Source of the DNA: an uncultured Pseudomonadales bacterium
Lineage (GTDB): Bacteria; Patescibacteriota; Microgenomatia; UBA1400; UBA12028
NCBI GenBank assembly: GCA_964635905.1
Contig: CAZWPK010000004.1
Span: 25,012-89,011, forward strand
DNA length: 64,000 nucleotides
Direction of reading: 5' to 3'
The notes below the pieces were generated by a model that was given only the letters and a program-made list of their open reading frames with translations, was not told the origin of the DNA and searched no databases. The position numbers were made by a program, and so were the translations under genes. Positions within the stretch are counted from its first letter, which is position 1. Each line of letters starts with the position of its first letter. Positions 36,991-62,390 of this stretch are shown here, one piece after another.

Positions 36991-37214
36991 GCGACGCTTC
37001 AGAACCAATTTTTATCACTCCTAAAACAGATCTTGTTCTCCTGGAAGATCGCTATGGTCTAGACGCGCTTCGTGGGGCAATGGATGATCCGAAACTCCCT
37101 GCAGAGATTCAATCAATTGTAGCGTTCTACGTACTATCAACTTCGAGTGGAACAGAGTTGAAGCGAGCAGTTGTTTCTGAATATCCAGCTGGATGGAAAC
37201 AGAGACGTCAATAG
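36987..37214 (+). CDS. Small hypothetical protein
   Basis: 75 aa ORF ATGA-coupled to mltG; acidic, no motif. Confidence 0.3.
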   Translation: MSDASEPIFITPKTDLVLLEDRYGLDALRGAMDDPKLPAEIQSIVAFYVLSTSSGTELKRAVVSEYPAGWKQRRQ

Positions 37215-37285
37215 TTCTTAGAGAATGTATCTGTGATGGTAGACACAGGAAATATTCAGCTTCTAAGCGTACAATAGCATACGTG

Positions 37286-38851
37286 ATGATGCTTAAACTC
37301 TTGATTCCCGTATTGGCACTTCTTGGTCTACTTGATGCCGGGTACCTTACCTATGAAAAAATGATGGGAATCGTTCCTCCCTGCAGCCCATCCTTTGACT
37401 GTGAGACGGTATTGCAGAGTTCTTGGTCATCCATCGGACCCATTCCTGTCTCGGTGATGGGGATGCTTTACTATACTGTCATCTTGTTTTTGGGAAGCCT
37501 TCTTGTTCTGGATGTGAAAAACATTCCATTTCGAGGACGTGGTGTCTCCCTATTTCAGATCGTGCGATTCGTCTCTACTGTTGGCTTTTTAAGCTCAATG
37601 GGGTTTGTGTATCTGATGGCGGTTGTGATTCAAGCCTGGTGTCCCTATTGTGTAATCTCCGCTGGAATTAGTACGGTTCTCTTCCTGATTGTGTATCTCT
37701 TGTCGCGCAGTCGCACCCAAAGTACCCAAAGAGTCTCAGAGTATCCCTTAAATCTGGCATTCTTTGCTTTTGTCTATCAGGTTCTCTTAAAACCAATTTT
37801 ATTTCGGTTTAACCCGGAAACGATTCATCATCTCTTTGTTCGGTTTGGAAAAATACTCGGGATGACTCCAGCAACGCGGGCATTAACACGTTGGTGTTTT
37901 TCCTATCCCAATTCTGTCCCCATTGTTCTTGCTGGTATCGATTTCACAAACAAAGTTGGATTATCCGCAGGGTTTGACTATGATGCGGACCTTACGCAGA
38001 TTCTTCCGGACATCGGTTTTGGGTTTGCAACCCTGGGTACAGTGACATTGCACCCATATGAGGGGAACACCCGACCAATGCTCACGCGCTTTCCAGACTC
38101 AAAAGCGCTTTTGGTAAATAAAGGCTTTAAGTCCATCGGAGCCCCTGCGGTGATTGCGAAACTAGAAGGGCAGACCTTTCGAATTCCCATTGGTATTAGT
38201 ATCGGGAGCACCAATAAGATTTTTAACTCCTCCAAGGAACAGATCGATGATGTGGTAAAAACTTTTCGGCTGTTTGAAGCTTCCAGTGTTGCGCACTCCT
38301 ACTATGAATTGAATATCAGTTGTCCCAACACCAAAGGAGGACAACCCTTTACGGATGCGAAGCGCTTAGATGCACTGCTCAAAGCCTTACGAGTGCTCCA
38401 GATTCAAAAGCCCGTGTTCGTCAAACTTCCCATCGATCTTGCGGATGGCTTAAGTCGGGCGACTACCCATACACAGCTACTCTCCCTGGTAGACCGAATG
38501 TCAAAAGAACCCTGGATCGTTGGCCTCATCAGTGGCAATTTAACTAAAGATCATGAAAATACTTCCGTTTCCACTTCCGACCGCACACAATGGAAGCAAC
38601 GCAAAGGAGGAATTAGCGGGAAACCTACCTTTGAACGCTCTAATCTCCTTATTTCCGCACTCCGCAAACGCTTTAGGTCTCGTTTTCTTATTATTGGGAC
38701 AGGAGGGGTTTTTTCCGGCGAGGATGCGCTAACAAAGCTTTCATCGGGAGCGGACCTTGTGCAGTTAATTACAGGAATGATCTATCAAGGCCCGCAGGTA
38801 ATTGGAGATATTAATTGGGTCCTCTCGGGAAAAGACTCTAAAAAAAAGTGA
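37286..38851 (+). CDS. Fusion protein: N-terminal VKOR (vitamin K epoxide reductase/DsbB-like) membrane domain + C-terminal family-2-like dihydroorotate dehydrogenase (FMN TIM barrel)
   Basis: VKOR: loop Cys pair 'PPCSPSFDC', TM CXXC 'AWCPYCVISAG'. DHODH: 'LFRFNPETIHHLFVRF' (quinone-site helices), 'GIDFTNKVGLSAGFD', 'GFGFATLGTVTLHPYEGNTRPMLTRF', 'LVNKGFKSIG', 'ELNISCPNTKG', 'GGISGKP', 'IIGTGGVFSGEDA...LVQLITGMIYQGP' match E. coli PyrD block by block. Confidence 0.75.
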   Translation: MMLKLLIPVLALLGLLDAGYLTYEKMMGIVPPCSPSFDCETVLQSSWSSIGPIPVSVMGMLYYTVILFLGSLLVLDVKNIPFRGRGVSLFQIVRFVSTVGFLSSMGFVYLMAVVIQAWCPYCVISAGISTVLFLIVYLLSRSRTQSTQRVSEYPLNLAFFAFVYQVLLKPILFRFNPETIHHLFVRFGKILGMTPATRALTRWCFSYPNSVPIVLAGIDFTNKVGLSAGFDYDADLTQILPDIGFGFATLGTVTLHPYEGNTRPMLTRFPDSKALLVNKGFKSIGAPAVIAKLEGQTFRIPIGISIGSTNKIFNSSKEQIDDVVKTFRLFEASSVAHSYYELNISCPNTKGGQPFTDAKRLDALLKALRVLQIQKPVFVKLPIDLADGLSRATTHTQLLSLVDRMSKEPWIVGLISGNLTKDHENTSVSTSDRTQWKQRKGGISGKPTFERSNLLISALRKRFRSRFLIIGTGGVFSGEDALTKLSSGADLVQLITGMIYQGPQVIGDINWVLSGKDSKKK

Positions 38852-46350: not shown

Positions 46351-46953
46351 TTGTTTGGGTATCATTTGGGAATGAAATCACTGACGCTCGATCAAGTTAA
46401 AATCGCCATTACTTTGGGTACGATCGCAATTGCGATTGTTCATATCTGTTTTCCAACCTTAGGTATCGACACCACAACATTGGTTTTGATCGGAATTGCG
46501 ATTTTTCCTTGGATTTTCCCCATCCTTAAATCCATTGAGTTTCCTGGAGGTTTAAAGATTGAAATGGCCGACTTACAAAAATTAGGGATGGAGGCGAAGG
46601 AATCTGGGCTATTGGAACGAAAGAAAAAACCAACCAAAAAATCCTATCCCTTTGAACAAGTGACGCAAGTGGATCCTAATTTAGCTCTCGCGGGACTGCT
46701 AATCGAAATTGAAAAAGTATTACACAAAATAGCTGAGAAGAATTCGATCAAAAATTCATCGTCCTCCGTACTTTTGATTCGTCATATGGTCCGGGATGAT
46801 ATTCTGTCGGTGGAAGAGGGTGTAGTCCTCTCGGACCTTCTCACTTTATTATCCCAAGCTGTCCATGGTGCGGTGGTGGACCCCGAGGCTTCTGCCTGGG
46901 CAATCACGACCGGAATCTTAATTCTAGAAGCCTTAGAAGCGCGATTAAGTTAG
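46351..46953 (+). CDS. Hypothetical membrane protein (2-3 N-terminal TMs + soluble C-terminal domain)
   Basis: 'IAITLGTIAIAIVHICF', 'LVLIGIAIFPWIFPIL' TM segments; no motif; lies between rpoC and rpsL. Confidence 0.4.
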   Translation: MFGYHLGMKSLTLDQVKIAITLGTIAIAIVHICFPTLGIDTTTLVLIGIAIFPWIFPILKSIEFPGGLKIEMADLQKLGMEAKESGLLERKKKPTKKSYPFEQVTQVDPNLALAGLLIEIEKVLHKIAEKNSIKNSSSSVLLIRHMVRDDILSVEEGVVLSDLLTLLSQAVHGAVVDPEASAWAITTGILILEALEARLS

Positions 46954-48055: not shown

Positions 48056-48206
48056 AAGCTTTGGGATTCTGTATCTTTAAATACAGATCATGATCGGAAC
48101 CGTAGACTCTACAACACATTTTTTCGAGTGTAGCAGCTTACAATGCGTAGTCAGTTGTTTTAAACTTATAAAAAGAACTTAGATCTAGAAGTAAATAAAG
48201 GACTTT

Positions 48207-50361: not shown

Positions 50362-50796
50362 ATGAATGAGAACACTCATCCGTTGTCTCTCTACTTTCAG
50401 TTACGAAATATCCAGTATGGAAAGGAAAGAAAAGATACTGAGAGGTTAAATGATCGAAAGGGAGAAGTCTCTACCAGAAAGAAACTGGAAGGACATTATT
50501 TGTCAGCGCTACGGTATAAAGTTGAGCATATGCAGAAGTATTTGGATGCATTACTCTCAACCGAGGATGGAAATTCTGATCTAGCATTTCTTGCAATTCG
50601 AGGGTTTAACCTAACCTTACAAGAAACTATTATCGCTGCCGAGCAAGAAGCCGTTGCACTTATTGAAGAATGGAATACAAGTGCGGAACCAAAAGACTGG
50701 GTAAATAAATCGCTAAACAATATTGGGAATGAACTACTGAGTTTGTTTGATATAGAACAGAAAAAAGATAAGTTTATTAGTTCAAGAAGAAACTAG
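50362..50796 (+). CDS. Hypothetical protein inserted between fusA and tuf
   Basis: 144 aa ORF starting 4 nt after the fusA stop; helical, K/E-rich; locally AT-rich. Confidence 0.4.
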   Translation: MNENTHPLSLYFQLRNIQYGKERKDTERLNDRKGEVSTRKKLEGHYLSALRYKVEHMQKYLDALLSTEDGNSDLAFLAIRGFNLTLQETIIAAEQEAVALIEEWNTSAEPKDWVNKSLNNIGNELLSLFDIEQKKDKFISSRRN

Positions 50797-55804: not shown

Positions 55805-56326
55805 ATGGAAATCGTGAGCAAACAAACATACGTTCGTCAGAGTCAACAAAAGCTTCGAGATGTGGCTCGGGTAGTTAAACACTTACCGATTCCTGCTTTA
55901 CGCTTACAGTTAACACAGATGAACCGCGAAGCAGCAAAACGCATTTTGGAAACTGTAAACCAAGCAGTGGCGAATGCGCAACACAATTTTGGTGTGAGCG
56001 AAGATCAATTGACCTTAAAGGAATTATTGATTCTTCGTGGTCCACACTACAAGCGTATGCGACCAGTCAGTCGTGGACAAGGACACGCGATTTTGAAGAG
56101 AACCAGTCATATTGTGGTTCGCTTAGCGACTGCTGAAGCTGTAACAGCTAAACCAGCAGCTCATGACCATGACCACGATCATGCCCATGAAGCAGCAGCA
56201 GCACAGGCAGAAGTAGTAGCAGAAGAGAAAACTGTAAAGTCCGCCCCAAAAACAGAGAAAAAGGCGGCTCCAAAGAAGACATCAACGAGTACCAAAAAAA
56301 AGACAACACAAAAGGATGAGAAATAA
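55805..56326 (+). CDS. rplV: 50S ribosomal protein L22 with His/Asp-repeat and Lys-rich C-terminal extension
   Basis: L22 core to ~aa 115, then 'KPAAHDHDHDHAHEAAAAQ...KKAAPKKTSTSTKKKTTQKDEK'. Confidence 0.9.
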   Translation: MEIVSKQTYVRQSQQKLRDVARVVKHLPIPALRLQLTQMNREAAKRILETVNQAVANAQHNFGVSEDQLTLKELLILRGPHYKRMRPVSRGQGHAILKRTSHIVVRLATAEAVTAKPAAHDHDHDHAHEAAAAQAEVVAEEKTVKSAPKTEKKAAPKKTSTSTKKKTTQKDEK

Positions 56327-58236: not shown

Positions 58237-58539
58237 ATGAAATTTAAAGCTGGCGATAATGTACAGGTAACCGCAGGAAAAGACAATGGAAAGCATGGAA
58301 AAGTGCTCAAGGTCTATCCAAAAGAAGAGAAAGTTCTCGTTGAAGGCGTGAACATGTACGTGAAGCATGTTAAACCAATACAAGGACGATCTGGTGAAAA
58401 AATTCGCAGAGAACGACCATTGCACACTGCCAGTGTCGCAATCATGAACCCCGATACCGGAAAAGTGGACCGTATCGGATACAAGATGGAAGGTGGAGAG
58501 AAAGTGCGTATCTTTAAGAAGACTGGGAAGGCAATTTAA
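58237..58539 (+). CDS. rplX: 50S ribosomal protein L24
   Basis: 'MKFKAGDNVQVTAGKDNGKHGKVLKV' KOW motif. Confidence 0.9.
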   Translation: MKFKAGDNVQVTAGKDNGKHGKVLKVYPKEEKVLVEGVNMYVKHVKPIQGRSGEKIRRERPLHTASVAIMNPDTGKVDRIGYKMEGGEKVRIFKKTGKAI

Positions 58540-58543
58540 ACAT

Positions 58544-58834
58544 ATGGGAGAAACTCTAAGTAAAGTCGAACTTTTAGAAGTTTTTCATATGGAGCATGTA
58601 GATCGTTTGTGGGGTACTAACACACCTGGATATATTGTAACTTTGGCAACAGCTGGAAAAAACGGAGAAACATTGTATCTGAATGATTCTGCTTTTGCCA
58701 AACAGAACTTAGCAGGAATTGAGCGTAGCAATAGAGGAGATGTAATTAGGCTTACTGCTATACGTGATGCAGACGGAAAATTACTAGATATTGCAGACTT
58801 TATGGCACTTTATAGAGGCGTAGATAGAGATTAA
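58544..58834 (+). CDS. Hypothetical protein inserted between rplX and rplE
   Basis: 96 aa ORF starting 5 nt after the L24 stop and ending 5 nt before the L5 start; no motif. Confidence 0.4.
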   Translation: MGETLSKVELLEVFHMEHVDRLWGTNTPGYIVTLATAGKNGETLYLNDSAFAKQNLAGIERSNRGDVIRLTAIRDADGKLLDIADFMALYRGVDRD

Positions 58835-58838
58835 GTTT

Positions 58839-59399
58839 ATGAACCGATTACAAGAAAAATACCAAACTACAGTCATTGACCAACTCGAAAAAGAGTTTAA
58901 CAAGACAAATCGTATGGCGGTTGCAAAACCAACCAAGATTGTCGTTAATGTCGGAGTGTCAAAAAAAGAAAACGCAGATACCAGTAAAGCAATTGAAGCT
59001 TGGGTCCAACAATTTACAATTATTGCTGGTCAAAAACCAAAGATCTCTAAAGCCAAGAAATCGATCGCTGGATTTAAGATGCGACAGGGAGATCCAGTGG
59101 GTGTCACTGTTACTTTGCGTGGAGTCCGCATGTGGGAATTCTTGGATAAGTTGATTGCAATCGTTTTGCCCCGTGTCAAAGATTTCCAAGGGGTGAAGAA
59201 AAGTAATATGGATAGTGTCGGAAACTACAACTTAGGGCTTACCGAACAAATCGTGTTCCCTGAAATCAACTACGACATGATTCATAAAGTAGCTGGCTTA
59301 CAGGTCACAATCGTCAACAAAGCGGACAACCGAGCTGAAGCATTAAAGATGCTTGAATTATTAGGGATGCCGTTTGAAAAAGAAGAAGAGAAGAACTAA
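58839..59399 (+). CDS. rplE: 50S ribosomal protein L5
   Basis: 'MNRLQEKYQTTVIDQLEKEFNKTNRMAVAKPTKIVVNVGV' L5. Confidence 0.95.
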   Translation: MNRLQEKYQTTVIDQLEKEFNKTNRMAVAKPTKIVVNVGVSKKENADTSKAIEAWVQQFTIIAGQKPKISKAKKSIAGFKMRQGDPVGVTVTLRGVRMWEFLDKLIAIVLPRVKDFQGVKKSNMDSVGNYNLGLTEQIVFPEINYDMIHKVAGLQVTIVNKADNRAEALKMLELLGMPFEKEEEKN

Positions 59400-59402
59400 T
59401 CT

Positions 59403-59594
59403 ATGGCAAAATTAAGCAAAATCAATAAAACCATTCGACAAAATGCAAAAGGCTTTTCAAGCCGACGCAAGAACCGTTGTAACCTCTGCGGTCGCCCCCG
59501 TGGATTCATGCGTTACTTTGGAATCTGTCGTCTGTGTTTTCGAGAATTAGCAGCAAAAGGTGAACTACCAGGTGTAACAAAGGGAAGTTTCTAA
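59403..59594 (+). CDS. rpsN: 30S ribosomal protein S14 type Z (zinc-binding)
   Basis: 63 aa, '[25 protein letters not shown]' four-Cys zinc ribbon. Confidence 0.9.
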
Positions 59595-60008: not shown

Positions 60009-60269
60009 ATGAATAGTTCAGAATTTTCACCCAAAAATGTAGAAGAAAGTCGTGAAACACTTGTTGATTGGGCAGAGGAAGTTGCTACAAGAGAAATTGA
60101 AACGGGAACCGAAATTAGTAGTGGATTGCTTATTCAAAATGAAATCGCGTGGATCATTAACGTGCTAGCTGCGGACGAATACAAGTTTGAAGGGTACTCA
60201 CTCACCAAAGAGGAGCGAGAATCATATGAACAAAGAATAAATCAGTTATATGAGATATGGGGAATGTAA
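60009..60269 (+). CDS. Small acidic hypothetical protein inserted between rpsH and rplF
   Basis: 86 aa, strongly acidic ('EESRETLVDWAEEVATREIETGTE'); in-operon spacing of ~12 nt on both sides. Confidence 0.4.
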   Translation: MNSSEFSPKNVEESRETLVDWAEEVATREIETGTEISSGLLIQNEIAWIINVLAADEYKFEGYSLTKEERESYEQRINQLYEIWGM

Positions 60270-61210: not shown

Positions 61211-61939
61211 ATGGATAAAAAACGTTTTGAACGCAACCAAGAACCAAAAGAATTTGACGAGAAAGTCGTCCAAGTTAGTCGTGTTTCTAAAAAGACAAAA
61301 GGTGGAAACAAAATGGGATTTTCAGTGCTCATGGTTGTGGGAGACAAAAAAGGTCGTGTCGGAGTGGGACTTGGTAAGGCCAAGGACGTCCTCTCTGCCA
61401 TCCGTAAGGGTGTAAAGAAAGCAAAGCGCAAACTTATTAGTATCCCAATGAATGGAACTACCATTCCGTTCCCCATTGAAGTGAAGTTGGGAGCCGCCAG
61501 TGTCTTGCTTAAACCCGCTCCAAAGGGAAGTGGAATTATTGCTGGTGGTCCTATCCGCAGTGTCGTGAATGCTGCAGGAATTCGCGATATCAGTAGTAAG
61601 ATCAAAGGTTCCAACAACAAAGCCAGTAATGTGTATGCAACTTTTGAAGCCCTAAAGCAAATTACTCGACTTGTTGAACACAAGGGCATTAAATTAAAGT
61701 CTGTTGTTCAAGTGGAGGAAGAAGAGAAACAGAAGTTAAGAGAATTAGATAAGAAGGCAGCCAAACCACAAGTTGAAGAAAAGAAAACAGCGCAGCCAAC
61801 TGCTCATCGACGTCCGGCTCCTGCTCGACGACCCGCCAAAGAGGCAGTCAAAAAAGAAGTAGCCCCAGTAGAAGCAAAAGCGGTAAGAGAGCAGCCAAAA
61901 GAAGAAGTGAAGGTTGAAGAAACTAAGAAGTCAGAATAA
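61211..61939 (+). CDS. rpsE: 30S ribosomal protein S5 with ~80-aa Lys/Glu/Pro-rich C-terminal extension
   Basis: 'VVQVSRVSKKTKGGNKMGFSVLMVVGDKKGRVGVGLGKAKDV' S5 core; tail 'EEEEKQKLRELDKKAAKPQVEEKK...'. Confidence 0.9.
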   Translation: MDKKRFERNQEPKEFDEKVVQVSRVSKKTKGGNKMGFSVLMVVGDKKGRVGVGLGKAKDVLSAIRKGVKKAKRKLISIPMNGTTIPFPIEVKLGAASVLLKPAPKGSGIIAGGPIRSVVNAAGIRDISSKIKGSNNKASNVYATFEALKQITRLVEHKGIKLKSVVQVEEEEKQKLRELDKKAAKPQVEEKKTAQPTAHRRPAPARRPAKEAVKKEVAPVEAKAVREQPKEEVKVEETKKSE

Positions 61940-61952
61940 GACAAAGGAATGT

Positions 61953-62390
61953 ATGTTGCACAACTTATTAAAGATTACCAGTCGAGCTAAAAAACGCCTT
62001 GGTCGTGGAGGCGGATCTGGAAAAGGTTTTCATACCGTCGGTCGTGGAACAAAGGGACATACATCAAGAGAAGGTGGAACGATTCCATTGTGGTTTGAAG
62101 GTGGACAGTTACCCTTAATTAAGCGATTGCCATATCTTCGTGGAAAAGATCATTTTGATTCCGTTAATACCAAACCCGTTGCAATTGATTTATCGCGCAT
62201 TGCTCGATTAACTGGACAAGATATTACCCCAGAAACGTTAGTCGCAGCCGGATTAATCAAATCGGTATATCTTCCCGTGAAGTTAGTGGGATCTGCAAAA
62301 CTGACAAGCGTTGGTGAAGTTCGTGGTGTGGCCGCTTCTGCATCTGCACGTAAAGCCTTAGAAGAGGCAGGAGCCCGATTGTCTATCTAA
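61953..62390 (+). CDS. rplO: 50S ribosomal protein L15 (no L30 gene between S5 and L15)
   Basis: 'LLKITSRAKKRLGRGGGSGKGFHTVGRGTKGH' L15; the S5 stop abuts it with no room for rpmD. Confidence 0.85.
   Translation: MLHNLLKITSRAKKRLGRGGGSGKGFHTVGRGTKGHTSREGGTIPLWFEGGQLPLIKRLPYLRGKDHFDSVNTKPVAIDLSRIARLTGQDITPETLVAAGLIKSVYLPVKLVGSAKLTSVGEVRGVAASASARKALEEAGARLSI

Follow-up and report, generated by a model that had tools for sequence, protein, structure and literature searches.

An orphan acidic open reading frame between rplX and rplE, probably an exchanged accessory cassette in the ribosomal operon of a Woesebacteria species

Introduction

ORFans commonly enter genomes at sites beside native genes, whose promoters they borrow. 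Purifying selection usually acts on them, and their insertion inside a pre-existing operon is much rarer than addition at an operon end (Price, Arkin and Alm 2006, PMC1480536). Here we analyze ORF96, an open reading frame (ORF) encoding an orphan acidic protein of 96 amino acids (aa), which is located at 58544..58834 on the + strand of the window (the whole 64,000-nucleotide (nt) stretch of contig CAZWPK010000004.1, positions 25,012 to 89,011) between the ribosomal protein genes rplX (uL24) and rplE (uL5). ORF96 is like the ORFans described previously in that it is restricted to one lineage, lacks homologues and stands beside native genes, between which it would have been inserted and whose promoter it would use; it is on the same strand, has operon-like spacing and no promoter of its own, and is absent where relatives keep the flanking gene pair adjacent. 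It differs in that the Woesebacteria inserts are found within the most conserved operon cluster known, at many junctions, and in the strain-level swaps, near-uniform small size, acidity and recurrent 3' motif found here.

The order of genes in the S10-spc cluster is a textbook case of frozen organization, and both phylogeny and metagenome binning use the genes of this cluster as standard markers. Insertions of known metabolic genes in this cluster have been described, mostly between operons but with nrdHEF inside the rpoBC operon, as has one precise replacement of rpsN through recombination that left the neighbors undisturbed (Brandis 2021, PMC8046335). Those cases resemble ours in that the cluster gains genes, but they are not orphan mini-genes at the intercistronic junctions of S10 and spc.

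Three other systems invite comparison. Integron cassettes are also promoterless, co-oriented and tightly packed small orphan ORFs that are swapped among relatives and rely on an upstream resident promoter. The attC site of an integron cassette is an imperfect inverted repeat of 57-141 nt located 3' of the ORF, whereas the locus analyzed here has no attC: 4 nt separate the ORF96 stop codon from the rplE ATG, and there is no hairpin. No integrase or attI was seen among the scanned neighbors of ORF96, all of which are translation-apparatus genes or ORFs without a family, the remaining window not having been scanned for an integrase. In addition, the Woesebacteria cassettes are single and scattered among essential genes, not arrayed, and their flanks suggest that recombination was homologous and not site-specific. 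Like ORF96, phage morons and free-standing homing-endonuclease genes are placed precisely between conserved genes, vary among close relatives and deviate in composition, but here the site is an essential operon of a bacterial chromosome, and the insert has neither a promoter or terminator of its own nor a nuclease motif. Finally, the orphan immunity and antitoxin proteins of polymorphic toxin and bacteriocin systems are likewise small (70-140 aa), acidic, diverse, strain-specific and constitutively needed; the cassettes differ in having no sequence or structure match to such families and no toxin gene nearby; the likeness is purely one of analogy.

Our literature searches on small ORFs in the ribosomal operons of the Candidate Phyla Radiation (CPR) gave nothing relevant, and no description of interchangeable orphan mini-genes at ribosomal protein junctions was found in them. 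With a probability of roughly 0.6, we read ORF96 as a promoterless, horizontally exchanged accessory gene cassette that would be expressed via translational coupling and whose product is not a conserved part of the ribosome. ORF96 itself is an ORFan inserted in an operon; the more novel part of our findings is the family-wide turnover of such cassettes together with their shared end motif.

Results

ORF96 is an intact insertion limited to one species

ORF96 starts with ATG, and its translation begins MGETLSKVELLEVFHMEHVDRLWGT. Its junctions read TAA-ACAT-ATG on the 5' side and TAA-GTTT-ATG on the 3' side. The 4-nt ACAT spacer (58540..58543, +; from the sequence and the junction comparison) follows the stop codon (TAA, 58537-58539) of the upstream neighbor rplX (58237..58539, +; Pfam ribosomal_L24, E=2.9e-17, plus KOW), while the 4-nt GTTT spacer (58835..58838, +), which corresponds to the native (C)GTYT of empty sites, precedes the ATG of the downstream neighbor rplE (58839..59399, +; Pfam Ribosomal_L5 and L5_C). 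A preliminary description of this DNA had the ORF filling the gap exactly, 5 nt from each neighbor; the shared strand and the near-exact fit hold, but the spacer to either neighbor is 4 nt long.

That this is a real ORF, as the preliminary description took it to be, is supported by three observations. When the 299-nt rplX-rplE gap was shuffled 20,000 times with its composition preserved, only 0.145% of the shuffles had a forward frame open across it; under a codon model derived from the genes of the window, frame +1 of ORF96 scored +0.10 bits/codon and the remaining five frames -0.47 to -1.74; and the ORF is intact in four further assemblies. An alternative GTG start at 58493 would give a 113-aa version that overlaps rplX by 47 nt, which we consider less likely because the gene calls on other, independent assemblies give 96 aa. 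The GC content at third codon positions (GC3) is 0.219 in ORF96 compared with 0.408±0.042 (minimum 0.30) in 34 host genes, which points to a recent origin from a lower-GC donor.

In the ORF96 region, sites resembling promoters or terminators on the + strand did not exceed chance, an Rfam search gave no match at E<=1, and RNA folding was unremarkable (z-score 0.00). There were no terminal repeats or significant inverted repeats at ORF96, the sole repeat at both ends being the stop codon TAA, and no second copy or paralogue, as DNA or as protein, was present in the window or the fetched loci. Given this lack of Rfam matches, repeats, fold signal and paralogues, an RNA element, a miniature inverted-repeat transposable element (MITE) and a local duplication were rejected as identities of ORF96. 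With its 4-nt spacers and no promoter- or terminator-like site of its own, ORF96 is naturally read as co-transcribed and co-translated with the spc operon, a probable arrangement where the preliminary description had called it obligatory.

Among species-representative genomes, the closest entry is L003, a metagenome-assembled genome (MAG) of Candidatus Woesebacteria (Patescibacteria), whose amino-acid identity to the window is 98% for L5, 99% for L14 and 100% for S14. We treat it as a sister species because its operon DNA is only 88-92% identical to that of the window. More assemblies were found by exact-sequence look-ups via the 90% protein clusters of L5, L14, L16 and S7, and the relatives group into five species-level lineages with operon DNA that is 91-95% identical: lineage A (the window, L100, L104, L105 and L001), B (L003), C (L098, on the same contig as L101), D (L099) and E (L096, on the same contig as L102, and L097, on the same contig as L103). 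Among the ribosomal proteins of the sister species, L5 is at least 90% identical and L14 99-100%, with L003 alone differing in L14.

ORF96 is intact in all five lineage A assemblies, L104 being truncated by the end of its contig, and differs among them by 0-1 nt. The L24-L5 junction is empty in lineages B, C and D (TAA-CGTYT-ATG), and in lineage E it holds a 76-aa ORF, MTEQTVRIRVDHVDTT...IRIRD, which shows no relation to ORF96 (Smith-Waterman z = -0.3 against shuffles). ORF96 is also missing from the more distant L002, L004, L082, L084 and L106-L118, and the tally of absences includes 20 or more further Patescibacteria loci. Among the genomes sampled, ORF96 is limited to one species. The preliminary description had reasoned that absence from close relatives with an otherwise identical operon would mark the ORF as a non-functional spacer. 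Such absence is indeed found in L003, L098/L101 and L099, but the conclusion does not follow from it, because inserted ORFs common to several species show purifying selection (see below).

Divergent tracts lie beside two of the insertions

Sequence comparison revealed a divergent tract within rplX (58309..58489, +), likely the left part of the ORF96 import, that is 83-84.5% identical to every sampled relative; the adjoining 5' part of rplX and rplN are 94-97% identical to the relatives. In a sliding-window analysis, lineage A was at 77-84% against all four sister lineages across rplX codons ~25-85, a region over which the sister lineages are 93-99% identical among themselves, whereas the junction and rplE are again 91-98% identical. 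Synonymous divergence (dS) was 0.80 for rplX compared with 0.32 for rplN and 0.02 for rpsN. In lineage E (L102), identity dips to 80-84% on both sides of the 76-aa ORF, and the 3' end of rplX resembles that of distant lineages (GVEIK-stop).

Replacement was also seen at the strain level. At the L2-S19 junction, the flanks of L102 and L103 are 99.4% identical while the ORFs between rplB and rpsS are unlike, with 369 nt (122 aa; L102, 1776..2144) in one and 258 nt (85 aa; L103, 189..446) in the other; homology stops at the L2 stop codon and restarts at the S19 ATG.

Because the flanking tracts are divergent, we favor import of ORF96 by homologous recombination. The simplest reading of these patterns is that cassettes arrive with pieces of the flanking ribosomal protein genes from donors that would be more divergent and partly unsampled.

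As a separate observation, rpsN (type Z S14; 59403..59594) has a dS of 0.02 relative to L003 while its neighbors are at 0.3-0.9, and this mosaic pattern points to recent between-species recombination within the operon.

ORF96 belongs to a set of unrelated ORFs at ribosomal operon junctions

Inspection of the str, S10 and spc junctions of one Woesebacteria family showed at least 16 mutually unrelated, mostly acidic ORFs of 68-144 aa at 10 or more junctions; elsewhere the median junction length is 6 nt. The occupied junctions are L24-L5 (96 aa in the window, 76 aa in L096/L097, 77 aa in L005 and 83 aa in L083), S8-L6 (86 aa in the window, L100 and L003), L2-S19 (122 aa in L096 and 85 aa in L097), L14-L24 (94 aa in L005), L6-L18 (75 aa in L005), L18-S5 (88 aa in L005 and 68 aa in L004), L5-S14 (79 aa in L084), S14-S8 (98 aa in L084), S7-fusA (134 aa in L120-L122) and fusA-tuf (144 aa in the window). 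All of the cassettes are on the same strand as their neighbors, each fills its gap almost exactly, and 15 of the 16 are acidic, with an isoelectric point (pI) of 4.1-6.1. Apart from orthologous copies of a given cassette, no similarity was found between different cassettes; none matched Pfam, and nuclease, integrase or transposase domains were found in none of them. Large-database searches with the L24-L5 ORFs of L083 and L005 returned only the queries themselves. In the distant Patescibacteria and other phyla that were sampled, the junctions are compact, apart from the gene for L30 and a small number of unrelated cases. Two Armatimonadota MAGs (L046, 4570..6642, and L079, 4547..6625) have a gene for an EF-G-like GTPase of ~690 aa at the rplE-rpsN junction of the spc operon.

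Besides ORF96, the window has a second cassette, ORF86, between rpsH (S8) and rplF (L6) (60009..60269, +; pI 4.2), which is present in L003 and missing from lineages C, D and E. A third ORF without a family match, ORF144 (50362..50796, +; pI 6.0), lies upstream of tuf; it starts 4 nt past the fusA stop codon, is followed by an AT-rich spacer of ~90 nt before tuf, has no Pfam or PADLOC match and has one other member in its 90% cluster. At the junction of rpsG (S7) and fusA, the orphan ORF134 is found in L120 (6984..7388), L121 and L122, and in its place the window has a 151-nt non-coding spacer (48056..48206), which matches the ORF134 relatives only over the final ~21 nt (TAGAAGTnAATAAAGGACTTT, a stretch that contains the Shine-Dalgarno (SD) sequence of fusA) and gave no structured RNA signal (z=0.41).

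The ORF at 46351..46953 (+) between rpoC and rpsL encodes ~193-200 aa with a hydrophobic N-terminal part and has no Pfam match. It is kept in relatives (L120-L122), where its ratio of nonsynonymous to synonymous substitution rates (dN/dS) is 0.05; unlike the cassettes, it is a stable gene of the lineage.

Cassettes shared between species are under purifying selection

ORF86 of the window and of L003 share 84% amino-acid identity with a dN/dS of 0.32 (p=0.016 against neutrality), and the C-terminal half is nearly invariant. For ORF134, the comparison of L120 with L121 gave a dN/dS of 0.22 (p=2.6e-6), while the flanking ribosomal proteins were at 0.01-0.14. A single-sequence model of ORF86 comprises three helices with a predicted local distance difference test (pLDDT) score of 71 for the whole protein and 80-88 for the conserved half; a fold search with this model gave generic helical matches only (E>1). 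The retained cassettes encode proteins that are under purifying selection and evolve 5-10 times faster than their neighbors.

These results bear on the possibility that the inserts are translational bridges, that is, foreign DNA that is open across the junction by chance or by selection and survives only because translating ribosomes stay on the mRNA, which would preserve coupling and prevent polarity for rplE and the genes downstream, with the peptide being irrelevant. Such an origin would account for the observation that each inserted ORF fits its gap almost exactly and on the same strand, and for the orphan status, atypical codon usage and unconfident structure model of ORF96. Moreover, empty junctions work well in the sister species, and the 151-nt non-coding spacer of the window at S7-fusA, where relatives have a 134-aa ORF, indicates that inserts need not encode a protein. 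However, the selection on the two between-species cassettes (dN/dS 0.22 and 0.32) is significant, and ORF86, whose helical model is fairly confident, has a nearly invariant C-terminal half. Producing a useless peptide at the level of ribosomal proteins would also be costly, and a simple deletion restores the compact state; that ORF96 persists in five assemblies, drawn from two sample series, likewise would speak against neutrality. We therefore regard an irrelevant peptide as possible but rather improbable.

A recurrent motif marks the 3' ends of the cassettes

The sequence AGA-RRW-TAA terminates 8 of 15 cassettes compared with 1 of 71 genes of the window, that one gene being ORF96. The terminal 9-mer of ORF96, AGAGATTAA (58826..58834, +; Arg-Asp-stop), also ends four other unrelated cassettes, and the five exact copies lie at three junctions: L24-L5 (window, L096 and L005), L18-S5 (L005) and S14-S8 (L084). 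An 11-mer, ATAGAGATTAA, recurs in three cassettes, each from a different junction and a different genome, and a 15-mer, GGAATTAGAAGTTAA, is common to the L24-L5 cassette of L083 and the S7-fusA cassette. In the 764 kb of fetched loci, AGAGATTAA occurs 17 times, and 7 of these 17 occurrences are cassette ends. The 3' end positions of the cassettes are 58826..58834 in the window, 3988 in L096, 3988 and 6555 in L005, 2028 in L084, ~983 in L083 and ~7380 in L120, and the distance from the motif to the following start codon is 9-13 nt. A role of AGAGAT as an SD sequence was not supported by duplex energies (positions -20..-4) of -3.5 kcal/mol compared with -3.9 kcal/mol for random windows, calculated with a 16S tail assumed to be canonical; the SD sequence of the genome itself resembles AAAGGAG. 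The motif could be a relic of a duplicated terminus of the upstream gene (L24 ends ...GAAATCTAA or ...GCAATTTAA in various lineages), it could reflect a requirement for the C-terminal peptide, or it could be the signature of a specific capture mechanism.

Another reading is that the cassettes are autonomous or non-autonomous selfish mobile elements (homing-type, derived from a MITE or an insertion sequence, or integron-like) that target stop-spacer-start sites and that AGA-RRW-TAA is their recognition or cleavage signature. The frequency of the motif in cassettes relative to window genes, the 11-mer and 15-mer shared by three and two cassettes, respectively, the failure of SD pairing to explain the motif, and the ORF-precise boundaries are in line with this idea. 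Against it, there are no terminal inverted repeats, hairpins or target duplication beyond the TAA stop codon, no cassette has a nuclease, integrase or transposase domain, and the 4 nt past the stop codon leave no space for an attC-like site. Furthermore, unrelated cassette proteins cannot have a common mobility function, and the divergent flanks suit ordinary homologous recombination. The lack of a homing endonuclease motif, noted in the preliminary description, agrees with our searches of Pfam, NCBIfam and PHROGs, which gave no match of the HNH, LAGLIDADG, GIY-YIG or PD-(D/E)xK type. A selfish element thus appears quite unlikely.

ORF96 has no detectable homologues and is unlike its ribosomal neighbors

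A word-indexed search of 5.8 billion clusters gave one match to ORF96, a 99%-identical copy. When 1.84 billion representatives were searched exhaustively with HMMER, the only match outside the species of ORF96 was one immunoglobulin-like repeat protein of 2191 aa (P0002, E=7e-10), which was rejected as a homologue since 21 near-identical repeats, each worth -3 to 9 bits, add up to its score and no single match is significant. Overall, no homologue outside its own species was detectable among about 15 billion proteins, and there was no match to Pfam, NCBIfam, PHROGs, PADLOC, PDB sequences or phage genomes (tblastn). The defence models of PADLOC-DB had no match at E<1 to ORF96 and seven other cassettes. 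ORF96 has no Cys, and no HNH-like His/Cys cluster was seen on reading the sequence. A match to the viral contig L095 lay in a stop-filled frame overlapping a real gene in another frame and was dismissed as chance, and L5, used to scan viral contigs, gave no match. By these searches, ORF96 appears to be an ORFan in the sense of a gene without homologues beyond a narrow set of close relatives.

By eye, the four L24-L5 ORFs (ORF96 and those of 76, 83 and 77 aa) seemed to have a common beta-rich, AbrB/KOW-like 'GD-V-V..DG-K' pattern. Homology was not supported: pairwise Smith-Waterman z values of -0.3 to 1.7 did not improve on those of controls, E was >0.1 in BLASTP and phmmer, and neither AbrB/MazE nor KOW was found by Pfam in the four ORFs.

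The preliminary description had proposed that ORF96 may be a lineage-specific ribosomal or ribosome-associated protein. A protein of this kind, or a chaperone or escort of a basic ribosomal protein such as uL24 or uL5, would suit the location and coupled expression within the spc operon, and a small acidic protein (pI 5.06) could in principle bind basic ribosomal proteins. In archaea, the ribosomal protein gene S4e occupies the L24-L5 position. However, ORF96 (net charge -4.3) contrasts with the 16 flanking ribosomal proteins, all of which have a pI of 9.5-11.3, and no ribosomal family, including archaeal S4e, matched it in Pfam or NCBIfam at E<1. Its codon usage is foreign, the cassettes at other junctions are mutually unrelated, and the sister species, with 91-95% identical operons and ribosomal proteins that are 90-100% identical, either lack it (lineages B, C and D) or have an unrelated ORF (E). 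These data speak against the proposal, and they do not support a lineage-wide conserved ribosomal protein; a ribosome-associated or escort role is very unlikely.

An assembly or annotation artefact, conceivable since the source genome is metagenome-assembled, is dismissed by the identical insertion and junctions in five independent assemblies from four sequencing runs plus the NCBI contig.

Other features of the window

The + strand cluster of the window comprises rpoB, rpoC, S12, S7, EF-G, EF-Tu, S10, L3, L4, L23, L2, S19, L22, S3, L16, L29, S17, L14, L24, L5, S14, S8, L6, L18, S5, L15 and SecY, a typical str-S10-spc ribosomal arrangement. The C-terminus of L22 (rplV, 55805..56326) is extended by a long segment with an HDHDHDHAHE run and a tail rich in Lys and Thr, and L22, at 80% identity to L003, is the fastest-evolving ribosomal protein here; S5 (rpsE, 61211..61939) has a long C-terminal extension rich in Lys, Glu and Pro. 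There is no rpmD (L30) between rpsE and rplO (61914..62390), where the L15 ORF starts with TTG and overlaps the end of S5; the absence of L30 is typical of the CPR. Elsewhere in the window, a single ORF of 552 aa (37193..38851, +) has a VKOR (vitamin K epoxide reductase) domain in its N-terminal part and a dihydroorotate dehydrogenase domain in its C-terminal part.

Discussion

The results reported above show an insertion that is present, absent or replaced in closely related species, together with foreign composition, orphan status, divergent flanks and selection on two sister cassettes. We propose that a cassette of ~295 nt, made up of spacer, ORF and stop codon, entered the rplX-rplE junction of one Woesebacteria species via homologous recombination in which the conserved genes for ribosomal proteins acted as homology arms. 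ORF96 would be transcribed from the spc operon promoter, since it has no signals of its own, and its anatomy, with 4-nt spacers on both sides that would keep rplE coupled, suggests translation by termination-reinitiation. According to the title of PMC10666635, such coupling requires overlaps or very short intergenic distances. The product would be a small, acidic, soluble protein outside the conserved ribosome, and ORF96 would be one member of a collection of unrelated, lineage-restricted small ORFs that are gained, lost and replaced at str, S10 and spc junctions.

Several observations weigh against this proposal. The single-sequence AlphaFold model of ORF96 is unconfident (pLDDT 40) and lends a folded product no support. 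The five assemblies differ in ORF96 by one single-nucleotide polymorphism, the nonsynonymous C220T in L001, which is too little variation for a Ka/Ks estimate on its orthologues. None of the sampled genomes represents a donor lineage with ORF96. The last 50 nt of rplX are 86-90% identical to the relatives, so that the divergent tract stops short of the junction and the exact recombination end-points are uncertain. Finally, the shared AGA-RRW-TAA end hints at something more specific than plain recombination.

What the cassettes might do is suggested by their properties as a set. They are small, acidic, diverse, strain-specific, probably constitutively expressed at a high level and under purifying selection, and binders of the immunity, antitoxin or decoy type fit this combination best. 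By analogy, ORF96, which is itself probably functional, may act by binding (as an inhibitor, immunity protein or decoy) and not as an enzyme. A more speculative and rather doubtful extension is that, in one Woesebacteria family, the str, S10 and spc operon junctions serve as a dedicated exchange platform for small acidic effector genes, likened to an integron without an integrase, in which the ribosomal protein genes would provide homology arms between species as well as constitutive expression, and AGA-RRW-TAA, along with the 11-15-mers common to cassettes that are otherwise unrelated, would mark a specific capture or expression mechanism. The cargo of such a platform would be strain-specific immunity, anti-toxin or anti-phage binders, possibly protecting the translation machinery.

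Taken together, our findings indicate that the junctions of these operons in one group of ultra-small bacteria are sites of fast turnover of orphan genes, which are swapped even between strains that are 99.4% identical. A caution follows for the use of these operons as markers, in that recombination tracts beside the cassettes can affect concatenated ribosomal protein trees and operon-synteny filters. The junctions also lend themselves, as a natural system, to work on how translational coupling tolerates inserted cistrons and how it shapes them. For the organisms themselves, they would constitute a niche for accessory genes that had not been recognized before, one offering what is probably the highest constitutive expression in the cell with no need for regulatory DNA, and thereby a source of presumably abundant proteins of unassigned role in bacteria whose biology, including episymbiosis and phage resistance, is little known.

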